From a virus (Duplodnaviria; Caudoviricetes), in the IMG/VR virus record IMGVR_UViG_3300031992_000052, positions 1 to 64,000 of that record: DNA of 64,000 nucleotides. One strand, given 5' to 3'. Below the pieces are notes generated by a model. The model had not been told where the DNA came from, made no database searches, and worked only from the letters and a program-made list of their open reading frames with translations. Of the stretch, positions 9,712 to 18,894 are shown in pieces (position 1 is the first letter of the stretch; the number at the start of each line of letters is the position of its first letter). A program made the position numbers and the translations under genes.

Positions 9712-11097
9712 ATGAAACAGATTACAGAACGCTACAAGCAAGGCTTCGGCTACAACGGACTGACGAATGAGCTGACGCTGGCCGACGGCACACGGATTCG
9801 TGGTGCCTATAAGTTGATAGAGGCGGGCAGCGCCACGGCGAGCCACGACCCATTCAGGGGCTGGCAGAAGAGTGAGGGATTTCCCACCGACCAGAATGGT
9901 CAGACGGTGAACGACCGCGACTATGAGCACGATCGAGAGGCGCAGCAGGTGACGGAGCGCATAGCCGAGCACTACGACCAGCGGGCGCTGCAGACGCCGG
10001 TTGTGGTGACACGGGACGGCATCGTGCTCAGTGGTAACGGACGCACGATGGCCGGCGACCTGGCCGCACAGTGGGGAACGGACACCGACTATGTGGACTA
10101 TCTGGCCAAGTACCCGGAGCAGTTCGGGTTTACGATGGCATGGGTGAAGACGCTGCGCCACCCCCGCGTGGTGTTCGAGGTGTTCCAGACACCACCCTAT
10201 ACCACAGAGACTTTCGCCCGCTTCAATGCTCAGGAGATGAAGTCGATGAGCAAGACGGAGCAAGCGGTGAAGATGGGCAAGCTGGTGACTGACGAGCTGT
10301 TCCACCGGGTGTGCCGCACCATCAACCAGTACGACACGCTGGGCGAGTTCTACGGCGACGCCAGGGATGCGCTCGACGTGGTAAAGGACATGGTGACGGA
10401 GGGTGTGCTCAGTCAGGTGCAGATGGCCGAGATGACGGACGGCGACCGGCTAAGCGATGCCGGTCAGGAGGTGATAGAGAACCTGCTTATCGGTAAGGCT
10501 TTCGAGCGGAATCCCGATGCTGTAAGGCAGACGACCTCTGTACGCTCTATGCGCAAGATTATCATCACGGCACTGGCCGAGGTGGTGAACAGCATCTGCC
10601 TGGGTCCTGACTATTCGCTGGAGCAGGAGATGGCAAAGGCTATACGGCTGGTGTATGTCAGCCGACGGACGGGTGGCTACCATGAGGGCGACCGTGTGAG
10701 TGGCTTTGCCCGCCAGATGACGATGTTCGGCGACGAGCAGACCGTGGCCGACATGACCGACGGGGCGATGCTGCTCATCAGCGACCTGCTGAACGACAAG
10801 CGCTCGACACGGCTGAAGAAGGTGCTGGCCATCTATAACCACCACGCACAGGCTTCGGCCAGCGGCCAGGTGGATATGTTTACCGGCGGCGTGAAGACGA
10901 AGGCCGAGATACTCAGTGAGGTGTATCAGCTGCTGGGATGCGACGCTGAGATACGCGACCTGATGGGTACGGCAGTGAGGGCACGGACGGAGGCGGCGAG
11001 GGCTGCTGTGGTACAGCAGCAGACGGAACGAGCGGAGCCGACGTTTGCCGAAAGGCTGCGGGAGGCGCTGCTGAAGCACTATCGGGCGGCGGCGTAA
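9712..11097 (+). CDS. DdrB-like ParB-superfamily domain protein
   Basis: NDRDYEHD...PVVVTRDGIVLSGNGRTMA resembles the ParB-like DdrB domain of polyvalent proteins. Confidence 0.7.
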   Translation: MKQITERYKQGFGYNGLTNELTLADGTRIRGAYKLIEAGSATASHDPFRGWQKSEGFPTDQNGQTVNDRDYEHDREAQQVTERIAEHYDQRALQTPVVVTRDGIVLSGNGRTMAGDLAAQWGTDTDYVDYLAKYPEQFGFTMAWVKTLRHPRVVFEVFQTPPYTTETFARFNAQEMKSMSKTEQAVKMGKLVTDELFHRVCRTINQYDTLGEFYGDARDALDVVKDMVTEGVLSQVQMAEMTDGDRLSDAGQEVIENLLIGKAFERNPDAVRQTTSVRSMRKIIITALAEVVNSICLGPDYSLEQEMAKAIRLVYVSRRTGGYHEGDRVSGFARQMTMFGDEQTVADMTDGAMLLISDLLNDKRSTRLKKVLAIYNHHAQASASGQVDMFTGGVKTKAEILSEVYQLLGCDAEIRDLMGTAVRARTEAARAAVVQQQTERAEPTFAERLREALLKHYRAAA

Positions 11098-11124
11098 ACT
11101 TGAAACTTGAAACTTGAAACCAAT

Positions 11125-12537
11125 ATGGAATATTTTGCAAACTGTATGACCCACGAGCAACTGGAGCAGGAGCACCGGCGGCTTGTAATAAAGATGCACC
11201 CAGACCGGAACCCTGACAACCCCAACGCTACGGCTAAGTTCCAGGAGATGCAGCAGCAGTATGAGGAACGCAAGGCGGAGCTGAACGGCGACTATACCAA
11301 GTCGGCAAGAGGGCGCGAGCGGAGAGAGCGGGAGCGCCGGGAGCGTGAGGAACGGGAGCGCAAGGAGCGCGAACAGAACCGGCTGGCCGAGGTGCTGGAG
11401 CAGGCACGGCGCAACAAGCAGAAGCGGCACACGGAGCTGAAGGCGGGCGACTTCATCTATGCCCGGCAGGTGAACGTGGGCAAGGTGGCTATGGCCTTTG
11501 CCCGTATGGAGCCGCTGCTGCGGGAGGTGCTGACCGCAGGACTGGCCGACGAAGCGGTGGTGATGGTAGAGACTATCGTGGAGATGAGCGACGAGCAGCT
11601 GATGAACAACGACCTGAACTATGAGCTGCCAGACGGCGGACCGTGGGGCGGATGGGAAACCATTCAGAGTGCCGACCCTGCCAACGGCATCCGCAAGGCC
11701 AAGCGCGTGGCGAAGGTGGTGATGTTCCGCTCGCCAAGCTACTGCGTGATGGGCAGCCCCATGGGTGACCCGATGATAAGCCGCTTCTACATGCCCTGCG
11801 GCTACGGCGAGATGTATCAGAAACAGCTCGACGCCATGCTGGCTAAGATACGCCACGAGCAGCAGGAGCAGCAGCGCATCGAGGCGGAGCGCAAGGCACG
11901 CATCGAGACGGAGCAAAGGCCGCTGATAGACGAGTGGCAGGGGAAGCTGATTACTATCAGCCGAGGACTGACCGACGCGGAGCAGCAGACGGTGGCGATC
12001 AGTAACCTGAAGGCGGTGCTGAAGGGGCGGTTCCCGGGGGTGACGTTCACGGTGAAGAGCACTAAGAGCAGCTACGGCAAGCATCAGTATTATGAGCTGA
12101 CGTGGGAGGACGGGCCGACGGTGCAGGAGGTGACGGACGTGGAACGGCTGTTCGACCCCTGCTATGACAGCGACACGTTTTCTACCCCGTGGACGGAGCG
12201 CTTCGGCAAGGTGCTCTTCGGGAGCAGGACGCGCAAGATGAACGTGCTGACGAAGGCGCGTATCTTGCAGCAGTTGGGCGGCGTGGCGGATGCCTTCTGT
12301 CAGGGCGACATCGACGACGAGGTGACGGTCAGCGACGACGACTGGACGATGCTACACCTGATGGTGGGCGTGAGCACCAGCGACAAGGACGCTACGCTAT
12401 GCCGCTCGACGCTGAAGGCTGACGGCACACGGCGGGTGCATATCGGCACGGCTGTGCGCTATGTGTTCGACAGGACGAGCTATGTAAAGGCTAAGGTCAC
12501 ACGGAAATCACAGAAAGCACAGAAGCAGGCGGCGTGA
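11125..12537 (+). CDS. DnaJ (J-domain) protein with C-terminal LPD29-like domain
   Basis: HRRLVIKMHPDRNPD...KFQEMQQQYE (HPD motif); NLKAVLKGRFPGVTFTVKS...LTWEDGPT resembles LPD29. Confidence 0.72.
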   Translation: MEYFANCMTHEQLEQEHRRLVIKMHPDRNPDNPNATAKFQEMQQQYEERKAELNGDYTKSARGRERRERERREREERERKEREQNRLAEVLEQARRNKQKRHTELKAGDFIYARQVNVGKVAMAFARMEPLLREVLTAGLADEAVVMVETIVEMSDEQLMNNDLNYELPDGGPWGGWETIQSADPANGIRKAKRVAKVVMFRSPSYCVMGSPMGDPMISRFYMPCGYGEMYQKQLDAMLAKIRHEQQEQQRIEAERKARIETEQRPLIDEWQGKLITISRGLTDAEQQTVAISNLKAVLKGRFPGVTFTVKSTKSSYGKHQYYELTWEDGPTVQEVTDVERLFDPCYDSDTFSTPWTERFGKVLFGSRTRKMNVLTKARILQQLGGVADAFCQGDIDDEVTVSDDDWTMLHLMVGVSTSDKDATLCRSTLKADGTRRVHIGTAVRYVFDRTSYVKAKVTRKSQKAQKQAA

Positions 12538-12613
12538 GGATTTTGGAAAGAAATTATCAGAAATTAAACAGAAATTATTTTAACCCCCAAGTCCCGGAAG
12601 GGCAAAGAAAATT

Positions 12614-13024
12614 ATGAAGACTATCGACGAGATTATCAACAACGAGAATTACAAGAGACTGAATGGCGCGTTGGTAGACCGCAGCATTGAGATTGCGGGT
12701 AAAATCCGCGAAGCCATGCAGTCGGCTGAGATTAAGGAAGTCGGCGACTATTCCATCCAGACTGTGCGCAGCCGCTCCGGATTCAGTACAACGGATTTGT
12801 ATGTGCTGGCAGAATGTGACGACTATCCCGTGTACCACTGTCTCGAAATTGAAAACAGCAAGCACTTCGCTAACGACTTCAACTGCTGGATGCAGAAGGC
12901 TACCGGCAAGGAACGCTTGAAGTTCCTGAACGATGCCAAAAGCGTGCTGGAGGAGATAGAGGCTATCAAGCAGAAGCGAATGGAGGATGTGGAAGATGCG
13001 CTGAAGGCTGTCGAAGGGCTGTAA
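12614..13024 (+). CDS. hypothetical protein
   Basis: 136-aa ORF. Confidence 0.75.
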   Translation: MKTIDEIINNENYKRLNGALVDRSIEIAGKIREAMQSAEIKEVGDYSIQTVRSRSGFSTTDLYVLAECDDYPVYHCLEIENSKHFANDFNCWMQKATGKERLKFLNDAKSVLEEIEAIKQKRMEDVEDALKAVEGL

Positions 13025-13027
13025 AGG

Positions 13028-13052
13028 AAAAAGGGAGGCCCTGAGCCTCCCT
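13028..13052 (-). terminator. Rho-independent terminator of the minus-strand CRISPR-mimic RNA
   Basis: Minus strand AGGGAGGC-TCAGG-GCCTCCCT followed by TTTT. Confidence 0.8.
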
Positions 13053-13138
13053 AAATCCTCGCATTGCTGCGACATCTACCAGAGTAGAAATTTGAACTAT
13101 TAAGTTCGTTTCAATCCACAAGCCCTTTCGGACTTGAC
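13051..13138 (-). CRISPR. cas-less mini-array / CRISPR-repeat mimic RNA: I-C-like repeat, 34-nt pseudo-spacer containing a Cas12a handle, degenerate I-C repeat
   Basis: Minus strand: GTCAAGTCCGAAAGGGCTTGTGGATTGAAAC | GAACTTAATAGTTCA-AATTTCTACTCTGGTAGAT | GTCGCAGCAATGCGAGGATTTAG. Confidence 0.78.
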
Positions 13139-13142
13139 GGTG

Positions 13143-13174
13143 CAAAGATATCACTTTTGTTCCGAACGTCCAAG
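13143..13174 (-). promoter_or_regulatory. Bacteroidetes housekeeping-type promoter for the CRISPR-mimic RNA
   Basis: CTTG-N20-TATCTTTG fits the -33 TTTG / -7 TAnnTTTG consensus; ends 4 nt before the repeat. Confidence 0.75.
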
Positions 13175-13228
13175 AGGGCTGTGGATATTTTACGGAAAAT
13201 TAACAACAGACAAAATCAATCGAGAGTT

Positions 13229-13720
13229 ATGAGAATAGGACAGCATTACTTTCCTGAGTATGCCCTGTATTACAGAGGCTATGGACTGACGAACGGGGAT
13301 GGCGGCAGATGCTGCGCAATGCACGACACGCCGGAACTGTATGACAAGTGCGACTATCCTAACATCGGACTGGGATGGCCGGTGGATAAGGGCCGCGACT
13401 ACAACCTGGAGGAGATGAAGCAGCGCATCGACGAAGTGATAGCCGAGCGAGAGCGGCGCATCGGGTGGGTGAAGGAGTTTGCACAGACACAGAAGAAGCC
13501 CGACTGGACGGAGCGTTATCTGCTGGAATCCTGCGACCCGAACAATGACGACGGACACAGAGGCAGGAGCCACCATACGGAGGCAGAGCTTTACCACATG
13601 TGGAGCGACGGCATACACTACTATATGCGATGGGGCATGGGGTTCGTAAAGGTATCGAAGACAAAGTACCTCTATCGCCAGTTCCTGATTGAGAAAGGAT
13701 ATATTGAGGATAAGGACTAA
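13229..13720 (+). CDS. hypothetical protein
   Basis: ORF; start moved to GAGTTATG. Confidence 0.7.
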   Translation: MRIGQHYFPEYALYYRGYGLTNGDGGRCCAMHDTPELYDKCDYPNIGLGWPVDKGRDYNLEEMKQRIDEVIAERERRIGWVKEFAQTQKKPDWTERYLLESCDPNNDDGHRGRSHHTEAELYHMWSDGIHYYMRWGMGFVKVSKTKYLYRQFLIEKGYIEDKD

Positions 13721-13734
13721 AGCGACAACGAGAT

Positions 13735-16700
13735 ATGAGTAAGTTATCAAGACTGCGCGACAACATCGAGGCACTGCAGCATGCGATGACCTCGACGAGT
13801 GAGTATGACCAGAGTATTCTGAATAAGTATTCGGGCTTCGGAGGGCTGAACTTCGTGCTAAACCCGCTGGAGCCGACGGCATGGACGAAGAGCGACATGG
13901 TGTACTATCAGGACACCGTGCGGCTGCATGAGCTGCTGCGAGAGGAAGCGGGGAGCGATAAGGAGTATCAGGCATGGGTGGAGAGCCTGAAGGCAAGCAC
14001 GCTCACGGCGTATTATACGCCACGGGAGGTGGTGCATGCCATCGGCAAGGCACTCTATAGTTGGTATAACGTAGATCAATGGTCGCGCCGTCCTCACACG
14101 ATGCTTGACCCTGCGGCTGGCATGGGGGCTTTTGCCCGCTGGATTGGCAGTGGCGTGACGGCTATGAGGGATGGCCTTGTTATAGCCTACGAAAAAGACC
14201 TACTGACAGGACTGATGCTGGAGAGACGGATGTCTAACAACAGCAAGACTGTTGTCCGTACTAAGGGCTTCGAGACTATCCCGGCATCGGAGCTGGGCAA
14301 GTACGACCTGGTGAGTACGAATGTTCCGTTCGGGGACATTAGGGTGTTTGACCCTGACTATACGAACTCGAAGAGCCAGGTGCGCAGGGATGCGGCGAAG
14401 ATGATCCACCGCTACTATGTGCTGAAAGGGCTGGACTGCCTGCGAGAGGGTGGGGTGTTAGCTTACATTATCACGAGCAACTACCTGAACCGTGACAGCG
14501 AGCAGATAGGCGAGGCGCTGAAGCAGGCACGGCTCATCGGGGCGTATCGGTTGGCGAACAATCTCTTCAAGGAGAGTGGCACCGAGGTAGGCACTGACCT
14601 CTTAGTGATGCAGAAGGACTCGAAGCGCGGCGAGCTGACCGAGGAAGAGACGATGCTGCTGACGCAGTATGAGGACGGGGGGTGCCCGACGAATATGTAC
14701 TTCGACATGTGGCCGGAGCGAGTGATTGCCACGGCGTGGACGGTTGACACGGATGCCTATGGAAAGAGGGCGTTTGTGTATAAGCACCGCGACGGTGTGG
14801 CAGGAATTGCACAGCAGCTGGGGGAGGTGCTGAGCAAGGACCTGAAGAAAGGCCTCACCCCCGACCCCTCTCCGAAGGGCGAGGGGAGTGACGACCAAAA
14901 GGGCAAGGAGAAGGCCAAGAGCGAGAAGCAGGAGCGCAAGGAGGAGAGGATGACTATTAAGGAGAGTATTTTGCGAGAGCTTTGCTTCGACTATCAGATG
15001 TTGTACAAGAAGGAAGCGGAGGAGATGGCTGAGCAGCCGGAACTCCGAAAGGAGATAAACCGCCTCTATGACGGCTTCGTTGAAAAATGGGGTCTGCTGA
15101 ACAAGCCGGAGAACGTGAAGTTCATAAAGGCTATCAAAGGCTTTGGCAATATCGCAGAACTGCTGACACTGGAGATACTGGAGGGCGGCAAGTGGCGCAA
15201 GGCTGACATCTTCGACAGGCCGGTGGCGTTCTCGACGGACGAGATGCACAGCGTGACGGACAGTCACGAGGCGCTGGCGCAGAGCCTGAATGACTATGGC
15301 AAGCCCGATGTGCGCTATATGGCTGCGCTGACGGGCAAGAGCGAGGAGGAAATCTGCGACGAGCTGGACGGGGAGATATACTATAATCCCCTGAGCGAGG
15401 AGTGGGAGATTAAGGCTCGCTTTATCAGCGGGAATGTGATTGAGAAGATAGATGCTATCCTGCGGAAGTACCCGGAGGCTGCGGACGCTCGGGCGGATTT
15501 GCAATCCGACCGCGACGAGTATAAGGACTTGCAGTCCGACAAGAACGGCGAGCGCATTAAAAATGCTGATACTCACAGCGACGGGATTGCAAATCCCGCC
15601 GAGCTGCGCGAGAAGACGCAGGCTCTCTATATCCGCCGCTCCTTGGATGCGCTGAAGAAGGCGGTGCCTGAGCCTATCCCCTTCGATGATCTGGACTTCA
15701 ATCTCGGTGAGCGATGGGTGGACTGTAAAATCTACGAGGACTTTGCCTCGGAGTTCTTCTCGATGGAGGGCGACGAGTGGGGCAGTAAGGTGGAGGTGAC
15801 GGTGCGGTACGACCGCAACCTGGACCAGTATGCCTGCGCCAGTGACCGTGGCAATGAGAAAATATATACCCAGTATGCCGTGAGCAGCGAGGCCAGCCAG
15901 CCGATTGACGGCATGGGGCTGCTGCAGCATGCGCTGCAGAACTCCTGCCCAAAGATGATGAAGTATCGACGTGACGAGCGGGGCCGCAAGATTCAGCAGG
16001 GCAAGAGCTATGCCAAGGACGAGGACCCGGAGGCTACGCAGAAGGCGAACACGCTGATTGAGGAAATCCGACAGGGCTATCAGGACTGGCTCTTGCGACA
16101 GCCGAAGACGCTGCGCGACGGGCTGGCTGATAAGTACAACCGACTGTTCAACTGCCATGTGAAGCCGCAGTTCGACGGCTCGCACCAGCGGTTCCCCGGC
16201 ATCGACTGGCAGGGGCTGGAGCAGAAATACGGCATACCGCAGCCGGTGTATAAGGACGGCAAGAAGGTGAGCGGTGGTCTGTATAAGAGCCAGGAGGACT
16301 GCATCTGGATGCTGGTGATGAACGGCGGCGGCATCTGCGACCACGAGGTAGGCTCAGGCAAGACGCTTATCATGTGTCTCGCCGCCCACGAGATGAAGCG
16401 CTTAGGTTTCTGCCACAAGCCGATGATTATCGGACTGAAGGCTAACGTGGCCGCCATTGCCGAGACCTACATGACGGCCTACCCCAAGGCCCGCGTGCTC
16501 TATGCCAAGCATGCCGACTACTCAGGCAAGGAGCGGGAGAACTTCTTCAACCGCATGAAGAACAACGACTGGGACGTGGTGATCATGTCGCACGACCAGT
16601 TCGGGTTCATACCGCAGTCGGACGAGGTGCAGGCCGACGTCATCCGTGAGGAGCTGAACCACCTGAACGAGAGCCTGAGCGCACTCTACGGGTCGTATGA

Positions 16701-18894
16701 CAGCGTGTCGAGCCGACTGAAGCGCGGACTGGAGAAGAAGAAAGCCAACTTGCAATCGAAACTTCAGGACTTGCAATATTCTATTCGCAAGCGCACTGAC
16801 GACGTGGTGGACTTCAAGATGATGGGTATCGACCACATCTTTATCGACGAGAGCCACCAGTTCAAGAACCTGGGCTTCACCACCCGTCACGACCGCGTGG
16901 CAGGCTTAGGCAACACGGACGGAAGCAAGCGGGCCTACAATCTGCTGATGGCTATCCGTACCATTCAGCAGCGCACGGGCCGTGACCTCGGAGCCACGTT
17001 CCTCAGTGGCACCACGATTACGAACTCGCTGACGGAGCTGTACTCGCTGTTCCGCTACCTGCGACCGCAGGAGATGGCCAAGCAGGGTATCACCTGTTTC
17101 GATGCCTGGGCCGCTATCTTTACCCGTAAGACGCAGGAGTATGAGTTCGGGCTGACCAACCAGATTGTGCTGAAGGAGCGGTTCAGATACTTCATCAAGG
17201 TGCCGGAGCTGGCGCAGTTCTACAACGAGATAACCGACTACCGCACGGCGAAGGACGTAGGCATAGAGCGGCCCGAGAAGTACGCCCGACTGATGCACAT
17301 CGAACCGACCCCCGACCAGGAGGAGTTTATCCACACGCTGATGAGGTTTGCCGAGACGGGCGACTTCTCGCTGATAGGCATCGACAACCCCACCAAGCAG
17401 CAGGAGATGGCGAAGATGCTCTACGCAACGGACCTGGCCCGCAAGATGTCGCTCGACATGCGGCTGATTGACCCGGCGTATGGCGACCACCCACGGAGCA
17501 AGGCGAGCATGTGCGCCAAGATGGTAGCCCAATACTATCACAAGTTCGAGGACGTGAAGGGTACGCAGATGATCTTCAGCGACCTCTCGACGTGGCAGAA
17601 CGACGGGAAGTTTAACATCTACGAGGAGATCAAGCGCAAGCTGGTGGAGGACTACGGCATACCGGCCTCGGAGATACGCTTCATTCAGGAAGCCCGCTGC
17701 GACACGAAGAAGAAGAAGCTCATCCACGAGGTGAACGACGGCGACGTGCGTATTCTCTTCGGCTCAACCTCTATGCTCGGCACTGGCGTGAACGCCCAGG
17801 AGCGCGTCGTGGCGGTGCATCACCTCGACACCCCCTGGCGCCCCGCCGACCTGGAACAGCGCGACGGCAGGGCCGTGCGTAAGGGCAACGTCGTGGCCCG
17901 CGATTATGGCGACAACAAAGTGGATGTAATCATCTACGCCGTGAAGCGCAGTCTGGATGCCTATAAGTTCAATCTCCTGCACTGCAAGCAGACGTTTATC
18001 CAGCAGCTGAAGCAGGGGCAGTTGGGCAAGCGCACCCTCGACGAGGGCTCGATGGACGAGAAGGGCAATATGAACTTCGCAGAGTATATGGCTATCCTCT
18101 CGGGTAACACCGACCTGCTGGAGCGTGCCAAGCTCGACAAGAAGATTGCTGCCCTGGAGGTGGAGAAGAAAAATTTCCACCGCGACCAGCGACAGGCAGA
18201 GGAGCGCCGCGACCGGCTGCAGAAGGACGTGGAGCGGCTGAAGCAGGATGTCCTGGATGCACAGACCGACCAGCAGCAGTTCGACGCAAGGAAGCAGCTG
18301 GGCGAGCAGGGCGAGGTGCTGAACATGCTCACGCTCGACGGCTTCACCGTGCCCGACGGTTTTTCCGTCGGAAGTGCCGACTATGCGAAGGCCATCGGTG
18401 AGCGGCTGTGGCGCATTGAGCAGACGGCTCGCACACAGGGTGTCCGCCTGAAGATAGGTCAGCTCTACGGCTTCGACCTCATGGTGAAGACCAACGAGCA
18501 GAAAGTGCGCGACGCCGACGGCAACGAGTCGATGGAGTACACCAACCTCTTCTCGCTGCAGGGCCAGCGCATCCTGCACACCGTGAACAACGGCAAGCTC
18601 TCGCACCTCTCGCCCCGTCTGGCAGCGGAGTATGCTCTGCGCTGTCTGCAGGAGCTGCCCCGCCGCATCGCCGACTGGCAACGCTGGATAGCCGACAACA
18701 ACGTGACTATCCGCCAGCTCGACGAACTGCTGCGCCAGACGTGGAGCAAGGAGGACGAGCTGCGCCGCGCCAAGGCCGACCTCGCCAAGCTCGACCGCAA
18801 GATTAACGCTGAGATGAACGGCAAGAAATCCGGCGGCTCATCGGACGATGGCAGTGCCTCCGAGGCCGACGGCGGGCTGAAGCAGGCGGCGTAA
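13735..18894 (+). CDS. DarB-like N6-adenine methyltransferase / SNF2-family helicase fusion
   Basis: MTase motifs LDPAAGMGAF and TNVPFG; helicase motifs HEVGSGKT, IDESHQFKN, LSGT, QRDGRAVRKGN. Confidence 0.9.
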   Translation: MSKLSRLRDNIEALQHAMTSTSEYDQSILNKYSGFGGLNFVLNPLEPTAWTKSDMVYYQDTVRLHELLREEAGSDKEYQAWVESLKASTLTAYYTPREVVHAIGKALYSWYNVDQWSRRPHTMLDPAAGMGAFARWIGSGVTAMRDGLVIAYEKDLLTGLMLERRMSNNSKTVVRTKGFETIPASELGKYDLVSTNVPFGDIRVFDPDYTNSKSQVRRDAAKMIHRYYVLKGLDCLREGGVLAYIITSNYLNRDSEQIGEALKQARLIGAYRLANNLFKESGTEVGTDLLVMQKDSKRGELTEEETMLLTQYEDGGCPTNMYFDMWPERVIATAWTVDTDAYGKRAFVYKHRDGVAGIAQQLGEVLSKDLKKGLTPDPSPKGEGSDDQKGKEKAKSEKQERKEERMTIKESILRELCFDYQMLYKKEAEEMAEQPELRKEINRLYDGFVEKWGLLNKPENVKFIKAIKGFGNIAELLTLEILEGGKWRKADIFDRPVAFSTDEMHSVTDSHEALAQSLNDYGKPDVRYMAALTGKSEEEICDELDGEIYYNPLSEEWEIKARFISGNVIEKIDAILRKYPEAADARADLQSDRDEYKDLQSDKNGERIKNADTHSDGIANPAELREKTQALYIRRSLDALKKAVPEPIPFDDLDFNLGERWVDCKIYEDFASEFFSMEGDEWGSKVEVTVRYDRNLDQYACASDRGNEKIYTQYAVSSEASQPIDGMGLLQHALQNSCPKMMKYRRDERGRKIQQGKSYAKDEDPEATQKANTLIEEIRQGYQDWLLRQPKTLRDGLADKYNRLFNCHVKPQFDGSHQRFPGIDWQGLEQKYGIPQPVYKDGKKVSGGLYKSQEDCIWMLVMNGGGICDHEVGSGKTLIMCLAAHEMKRLGFCHKPMIIGLKANVAAIAETYMTAYPKARVLYAKHADYSGKERENFFNRMKNNDWDVVIMSHDQFGFIPQSDEVQADVIREELNHLNESLSALYGSYDSVSSRLKRGLEKKKANLQSKLQDLQYSIRKRTDDVVDFKMMGIDHIFIDESHQFKNLGFTTRHDRVAGLGNTDGSKRAYNLLMAIRTIQQRTGRDLGATFLSGTTITNSLTELYSLFRYLRPQEMAKQGITCFDAWAAIFTRKTQEYEFGLTNQIVLKERFRYFIKVPELAQFYNEITDYRTAKDVGIERPEKYARLMHIEPTPDQEEFIHTLMRFAETGDFSLIGIDNPTKQQEMAKMLYATDLARKMSLDMRLIDPAYGDHPRSKASMCAKMVAQYYHKFEDVKGTQMIFSDLSTWQNDGKFNIYEEIKRKLVEDYGIPASEIRFIQEARCDTKKKKLIHEVNDGDVRILFGSTSMLGTGVNAQERVVAVHHLDTPWRPADLEQRDGRAVRKGNVVARDYGDNKVDVIIYAVKRSLDAYKFNLLHCKQTFIQQLKQGQLGKRTLDEGSMDEKGNMNFAEYMAILSGNTDLLERAKLDKKIAALEVEKKNFHRDQRQAEERRDRLQKDVERLKQDVLDAQTDQQQFDARKQLGEQGEVLNMLTLDGFTVPDGFSVGSADYAKAIGERLWRIEQTARTQGVRLKIGQLYGFDLMVKTNEQKVRDADGNESMEYTNLFSLQGQRILHTVNNGKLSHLSPRLAAEYALRCLQELPRRIADWQRWIADNNVTIRQLDELLRQTWSKEDELRRAKADLAKLDRKINAEMNGKKSGGSSDDGSASEADGGLKQAA
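14853..14890. repeat. REP-like palindrome in frame within the methylase-helicase
   Basis: CCCCTC-TCCGAAGGGC-GAGGGG stem, encoding LTPDPSPKGEGS in a linker. Confidence 0.6.
15487..15604. mobile_element. 118-bp MITE/REP-like element in frame within the methylase-helicase
   Basis: Near-perfect 21-nt terminal inverted repeats GCTCGGGCGGATTTGCAATCC / GGATTGCAAATCCCGCCGAGC and internal palindromic units. Confidence 0.7.

Follow-up and report, generated by a model that had tools for sequence, protein, structure and literature searches.

Solitary mimics of type I-C (RacrIC1) and type V-A (RacrVA1-3) repeats are known from viruses, and each of them inhibits the CRISPR-Cas system that it imitates (Camara-Wilpert et al. 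2023, PMC10651486). The SRUFinder pipeline sought hits that were not associated with other repeats (PMC10651486); searches for solitary repeats can miss those that are chained, which constitutes a blind spot. CracrVA1 is composed of one Cas12a repeat, a pseudo-spacer of about 21 nt and a terminator, and Cracr action needs a pseudo-spacer seed of at least 9-10 PAM-proximal bases matching a cas or toxin promoter, or similarity to a host CreR/CreA; Cracr arrays are reported to contain variants of one CRISPR type only, in a list of phyla that does not include Bacteroidota (Liu et al., 10.1101/2024.10.29.618823). Viral mini-CRISPR arrays serve inter-virus conflict, as reviewed in 2024 in a paper that makes no mention of mixed-type units (PMC11656645). 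Published Racrs are single repeat mimics and viral crRNA-like arrays are of one CRISPR type, and our search of an incomplete literature collection found no paper on mixed-type repeat-mimic RNAs.

Here we describe a phage locus in which a type I-C mimic and a Cas12a mimic are joined in one putative RNA, a combination that was not found in the literature searched. The stretch of DNA analysed, referred to as the window, covers positions 1 to 64,000 of an IMG/VR virus record of 95 kb, which is estimated to be about 80% complete. Reads containing this stretch come from ruminant gut metagenomes, and the phage is a rumen phage, probably of Prevotella-type bacteria.

Anatomy of the RNA unit and its genomic setting

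The unit is a putative non-coding RNA gene of about 110 nt on the minus strand (approximately 13150-13027), with no ORF within it, and is flanked by plus-strand ORFs at 12614-13024 and from about 13230. An initial annotation of the window had divided it into a promoter, a 31-nt repeat, segments of 34 and 23 nt and a terminator, and all of these segments and their coordinates were confirmed from the sequence (Table 1). Module 3 occupies the place of a Cas12a guide and also the place of the 3′ hairpin of a I-C crRNA.

Table 1. Positions of the elements of the RNA unit and of the anti-defence-type genes near it in the window
Feature	Position	Strand	Description
Predicted Bacteroidota-type promoter	13143..13173	-	TTG at 13173-13171, 20-nt spacer, TAnnTTTG -7 box
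-7 box, TATCTTTG	13150-13143	-	4 nt upstream of the first repeat base
Module 1, type I-C repeat mimic, 31 nt	13108..13138	-	GTC, 6-bp stem, GAAA loop, GTGGATTGAAAC
Module 2, full-length V-A (Cas12a) repeat mimic, 34 nt	13074..13107	-	mini-hairpin and handle
Module 2a, 5′ mini-hairpin, 5-bp	13107-13094	-	5′ part of the V-A mimic
Cas12a handle, 19 nt	13092-13074	-	3′ part of the V-A mimic
Module 3, shortened I-C-like hairpin, 23 nt	13051..13073	-	5-bp stem, GCAA loop, GGATTTAG
Intrinsic terminator	13027..13052	-	9-bp GC-rich stem (13052-13032), 3-nt loop, T run
ddrB-like ParB protein	9712-11097		anti-defence-type neighbour
DnaJ+LPD29 protein	11107-12537		anti-defence-type neighbour
DarB-like methylase/SNF2-helicase (antirestriction), 1719 aa	13735-18894		anti-defence-type neighbour

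Promoter activity is predicted for the region of the TAnnTTTG box. A scan for sigma-70 promoters returned nothing at the unit, as expected because the phylum is Bacteroidota. The RNA has a predicted fold of five successive hairpins (-41.1 kcal/mol, z -3.7), and its first stem contains a U-G pair, so that the pairing suits the minus strand only. Following published I-C biochemistry, the last 11 nt of module 1 would form the 5′ handle, with a predicted Cas5c cut between 13119 and 13118; the predicted Cas12a cut is directly 5′ of 13092. An Rfam scan of 12000-14500 with E values up to 10 gave only a chance miR-48 match, on the terminator, and the single RNA-library contig found covers 12132-12387, outside the unit.

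The I-C and the V-A motif each occur only once, in the window as in the entire 95-kb record, with chance expectations of 0.24 for the 12-mer (at most one mismatch) and, for the handle pattern, of 0.02 (at most two mismatches). Chance does not come close to explaining two such motifs 15 nt apart on one strand and framed by a promoter and a terminator. A type I-C CRISPR array was considered and ruled out, since the locus has a single full repeat and a truncated one, and cas genes were not found. The latter agrees with the initial annotation, which had noted that cas genes were missing: a model search of the 95-kb record found no I-C Cas7 gene and no Cas12a gene, the Cas12a result being a weak negative as the model detected none of its control genomes.

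The unit is flanked by a run of anti-defence-type genes (9712-18894), with the ddrB-ParB, DnaJ+LPD29 and DarB-like genes adjoining it, in line with the anti-defence setting noticed at the outset. Two small ORFs without a family match adjoin the RNA gene (12614-13024 and approximately 13230-13720) and could be candidate protein anti-CRISPRs. Relatives in runs X23 and X4 retain the unit but have unrelated sequence of about 437 nt in place of the gene at 13219-13727, and L131, another copy of the unit, diverges directly after the terminator; the replacement of a neighbour gene around a preserved unit, together with this divergence, points to an exchange of cassettes around the RNA gene.

Host type I-C and type V-A repeats

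That both CRISPR types occur in Prevotella/Bacteroidales, as initially stated, was borne out by the Prevotellaceae, in which I-C and V-A systems bear exactly the motifs seen in the unit. Prevotella sp. UMGS287 has both, with a complete V-A locus (Cas12a, Cas4 and Cas1; 17 repeats) and a complete I-C locus (Cas5c, Cas8c, Cas7, Cas4 and Cas1; 18 repeats). Its I-C repeat consists of GTC, a GC-rich hairpin and a 12-nt end as in module 1, and its V-A repeat has a 4-bp mini-hairpin at the start and a 19-nt handle at the end. UMGS287 also carries a copy of the unit, which we assign to a prophage because an integrase lies alongside, at the contig end; the repeats of this bacterium and the unit of its own prophage have the 19-nt handle and the 12-nt I-C end in common.

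Each of the three segments could be related to these host repeats. The 31-nt segment was correctly described as a type I-C-like repeat, since host I-C arrays located beside cas5c, cas8c and cas7 have GTC and the 12-nt 3′ end in common with module 1; the arrays in L074 and L061 agree with it in GTC, hairpin and 12-nt end. Compared to the host stem of about 7 bp, which is GC-rich, the stem of the I-C mimics is 4-6 bp and AU-richer, a difference that leaves doubt about recognition by Cas5c. The third segment, also taken as I-C-derived, begins with GTCGCA and ends with TGCG-GGATT as host I-C repeats do, with a shortened stem and the last handle bases gone; sister units L082-L084 carry a complete I-C repeat at that place.

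The 34-nt segment had been read as a Cas12a repeat placed as a spacer. The Cas12a handle within it is identical at 19/19 positions (CTG loop) to that of a natural 8-repeat V-A array in the metagenome contig L127. A 5′ mini-hairpin similar to module 2a is found in many Prevotellaceae V-A repeats, and we therefore refined the claim: the whole 34 nt, including the 5′ mini-hairpin, imitates a full V-A repeat, instead of being filler followed by a handle. At 34 nt the mimic is 2-3 nt below the natural 36-nt repeats, its 5′ half being a 15-nt analogue.

The same comparisons bear on an alternative that the initial annotation had offered, the guidance of one host system onto the array of the other. 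The unit would then be a working mini-array, with a I-C crRNA sending Cascade-Cas3 to V-A arrays or to the V-A mimics of rivals, or a Cas12a crRNA aimed at I-C repeats. The geometry of a repeat, 34 nt and a repeat-like hairpin fits host I-C spacers, which measure 32-36 nt, and viral mini-arrays are known (PMC11656645). However, the natural array in L127, whose handle is identical, differs in its 5′ half, in that the 17 nt with which the I-C seed would have to pair are unrelated, and the seed is likewise mismatched in all Prevotellaceae V-A repeats seen. Array repeats are not preceded by a constant PAM, module 3 has only 6 seed bases in common with host I-C repeats, and there was no PAM-flanked seed match within the phage itself. 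Moreover, the lysogen UMGS287 tolerates the unit alongside both of its arrays. Redirection of one system onto the array of the other is accordingly disfavoured, and we regard it as very improbable.

Among 401 sampled genomes of Prevotellaceae, about 23 contained V-A arrays and about 20 contained I-C arrays with this 3′ end, and the two were found together in only 2, so that a dual decoy would mostly pay across hosts or strains and not inside one cell. In Prevotellamassilia timonensis (arrays L061 and L116), at least six I-C spacers match unit-bearing phage contigs (L009, L012, L025, L033, L034, L037, L038 and L079), several of them at 34/34 positions, and thus provide direct host links for those uncultivated phages. 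These spacer sequences indicate that I-C immunity and unit-bearing sister phages are in real conflict. No V-A spacer matched the sister phage loci, and the P. timonensis I-C spacers gave no self-targeting match in the 80 kb around the unit copy of that genome. For the 95-kb phage, the 539 unique Prevotellaceae spacers (310 V-A and 229 I-C) yielded no credible match, the best being 19/20.

Two other features were seen in these bacterial genomes. A handle-like match in contig 15 of P. timonensis is probably due to chance, as the surrounding sequence reads as ordinary and apparently coding. In UMGS287, a perfect inverted repeat of about 60 bp lies upstream of cas12a (L072:1650-1790).

Recurrence, covariation and modular variants of the unit

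The initial annotation had suggested looking in related phages for the same architecture with covarying stems, and both were found. A scan of IMG/VR for a V-A handle located 5-30 nt behind a I-C 3′ end returned 42 further viral contigs, with covarying stems in modules 1, 2a and 3. The same pattern gave 3 matches in species-representative genomes, all of them Prevotellaceae (the uncultured Prevotella UMGS287, Leyella stercorea and Prevotellamassilia timonensis), and a metagenome scan added two more copies of the exact unit of the window (L130 and L131). The units follow a common plan of promoter, modules and terminator. A TAnnTTTG box is present upstream in 43/48 units, 4-5 nt ahead of the I-C mimic in those that begin with it, and all sister units close with a terminator hairpin, each different in sequence.

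Stem pairing was counted with a script anchored on invariant motifs because modules 2a and 3 are not correctly aligned in the MAFFT whole-unit alignment. With the four outer pairs of each stem scored, 51/52 cells were canonical in the 13 variants of the module 1 stem and 55/56 in the 14 variants of the module 2a mini-hairpin, values equalled by 0/2000 partner shuffles in either case; sequence relatedness inflates these counts, and the variants come from clearly distinct lineages with unrelated terminators. Module 3 falls into at least six stem classes across lineages, each able to pair in per-sequence folds. RNAalifold on the MAFFT alignment recovered only module 1, with 3 compensatory pairs, and the handle stem. 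The latter is unvarying in 28/28 aligned units and GGATTGAAAC never varies, the bases of both being fixed by the search pattern itself. Close relatives differ only in the handle loop base 13081, the mini-hairpin loop base 13099, promoter-spacer bases and the terminator loop. Because the stems of modules 1, 2a and 3 carry compensatory changes while GGATTGAAAC and the handle stem stay constant, the alignments indicate that selection acts on RNA structure in these three modules.

Additional hairpins were present in some units. In a goat-gut relative (run X4), an inserted small hairpin (at 13138) of the form GTCAA...TTGAC, closed by a GAAA-type loop, separates the I-C mimic from the promoter, and some viral contigs have a short 5′ leader hairpin.

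The pattern of conservation is also relevant to the possibility that the unit is a regulator of the Cracr type, whose V-A part, I-C part or both would guide Cas12a or Cascade to a host cas promoter, or to the promoter of a CRISPR-guarding toxin, for repression without cutting. CracrVA1 has this architecture of a single repeat, a short spacer and a terminator (10.1101/2024.10.29.618823), and module 3 is conserved to the point that in L024 it is identical at 22/23 positions although the terminator that follows is unrelated. Across the family, however, conservation tracks base pairing and not guide register, since the handle-to-hairpin distance drifts by 0-8 nt of A-rich filler, and the supposed I-C spacer is itself a covarying V-A repeat mimic. 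The sister unit of the lysogen UMGS287 lacks a seed match of at least 10 nt upstream of cas12a, k-mer comparison with its cas loci gave few matches of 9-12 nt, at chance level and in coding sequence, and no CreR-like element was found upstream of cas12a in this genome. Published Cracr arrays are, in addition, of the same type only (10.1101/2024.10.29.618823). Regulation of this kind is in our judgement unlikely.

Several lineages depart from the order of modules found in the window. In L082-L084 the order is reversed, with the promoter followed by the V-A handle and then by a complete 28-nt I-C repeat mimic (L082:3990-4110). Here the promoter box is 4 nt ahead of the Cas12a handle, so that transcription would yield the mature 5′ end directly, and the complete I-C repeat marks a I-C repeat behind the handle as a recurring design. 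Other lineages have a doubled I-C mimic or lack module 3. The nested mini-array initially proposed therefore fits the lineage of the window, in which 34 nt separate repeat 1 from the I-C-like hairpin, but not for the family as a whole, in which this distance is 33-41 nt and the third hairpin can be absent or the order reversed; the rule is one of chained modules, with nesting not obligatory.

Module content was also compared with the host. The Leyella stercorea genome contains 136 copies of a third kind of repeat, of 30 nt, and neither a I-C nor a V-A array by the two exact patterns used. In the unit of its prophage (L046:3420-3600), a copy of this third repeat, matching at 29/30 positions, precedes the I-C and V-A mimics. 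Since lineages reverse the order, double the I-C mimic, drop module 3 or add the third repeat of the host, the unit family is modular, its module content tracking the host in the cases seen.

Units mixing other repeat types were observed as well. Three-type units (L046 and L137-L140) are made up of the host-repeat copy, a conserved stretch of about 22 nt ending in CCGTTGAC, and the I-C and V-A mimics. A two-type unit in L088 (family genome G327, contig 79, around 28000) has a promoter box and a short segment ending in GGAATTGAAAC, a I-B-like handle; a Cas12a handle follows after 6 nt, and a terminator after about 27 nt more.

The variants raise the question of whether only one arm of the unit is active, for example as a Cas12a decoy with I-C-like hairpins that are inherited or structural (stabilisers or insulators at the 5′ and 3′ ends), or the reverse. 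L075 would fit this, as it lacks module 1 yet retains the handle, hairpin 3 and the terminator, and so would the marked difference between the stems of the I-C mimics and those of the host. In contrast, the 12-nt I-C 3′ end is exact in almost all units, with rare single-base variants (L079, L081 and GAGG in some), and a plain stabiliser needs no such single-stranded tail; the sister phages are, furthermore, targeted by I-C spacers. A single active arm is thus quite unlikely.

A probable polyvalent decoy RNA and its relation to known systems

The reading that we favour, and consider probable, is that the unit encodes a polyvalent Racr-like decoy RNA against type I-C and Cas12a systems, built as a chain of repeat mimics. 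We base it on the mimicry, the recurrence and covarying conservation, the modularity that follows the host, the anti-defence context, the host relatives that use both systems and the I-C spacers against sister phages, and on the fact that solitary I-C and V-A mimics inhibit their systems (PMC10651486). Its own promoter would drive transcription of the RNA from the first base of module 1 or one beside it, and the RNA would offer the I-C repeat hairpin with its 11-nt handle to Cas5c and Cas7, and a complete Cas12a repeat to Cas12a. Each protein set would bind, and probably cut, its own mimic, and the guide loaded in this way would be the self-paired repeat of the other system, without a DNA target. 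I-C Cascade components and Cas12a would then be locked in useless complexes, and phage-targeting crRNAs outcompeted. We infer the transcription, processing, binding and inhibitory steps for this RNA from the analyses above.

A bolder version, in which the nesting itself is functional, we put forward as a tentative and rather doubtful possibility. One transcript of about 110 nt would give rise to a complete I-C crRNA (11-nt handle, 34-nt "spacer" and 3′ hairpin) and a complete Cas12a crRNA (19-nt handle and 23-nt "guide"), each guide being the repeat of the other, targetless and self-paired, and would produce full-size but blind Cascade and Cas12a complexes. The unit could then be part of a modular toolkit of Bacteroidota phages, in which I-B-like, I-C and V-A mimics are gained or exchanged according to the CRISPR repertoire of the host. 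Functional nesting is possible but not established, because spacing in the family ranges over 33-41 nt and some members have no module 3.

If the decoy reading is correct, RNA mimicry can be polyvalent, with class 1 and class 2 systems addressed at once by one compact RNA that phages reassemble from modules to fit their hosts, and a phage could move among strains that differ in CRISPR type while devoting almost none of its genome to this. It would also represent a natural design for small multi-effector inhibitors, including inhibitors of Cas12a, a genome-editing enzyme.

Compared to the I-C and V-A repeats of Prevotellaceae (UMGS287, L074 and L072), the unit has the same GTC, hairpin and 12-nt end and the same 19-nt handle and mini-hairpin; it differs in being single-copy without variable spacers, in its shortened stems with stable tetraloops, and in a V-A mimic of 34 rather than 36 nt. 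Viral mini-CRISPR arrays resemble it in their repeat-spacer-repeat geometry and in being carried by a virus without cas genes. In the unit, however, the "spacer" does not copy a protospacer from a rival virus but is a structured repeat, conserved among the units, that imitates a different CRISPR type, and the repeats are mimics with altered stems instead of copies of host repeats. Cracr RNAs are likewise viral crRNA-like RNAs, with multiplexed units in both, whereas the present unit mixes I-C and V-A, and no promoter seed match was found for its sister unit in UMGS287.

The closest resemblance in subject is to the Racrs: the unit is phage-encoded, has no need of cas genes, lies outside a CRISPR-Cas locus and among anti-defence genes, and imitates host repeats of I-C and V-A, the subtypes for which Racrs have been validated singly. 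Unlike them, it is not solitary and its host phylum is Bacteroidota. It comprises three abutting repeat-derived modules from two unrelated classes in one promoter-to-terminator RNA, in which each mimic lies at the spacer place of the other.
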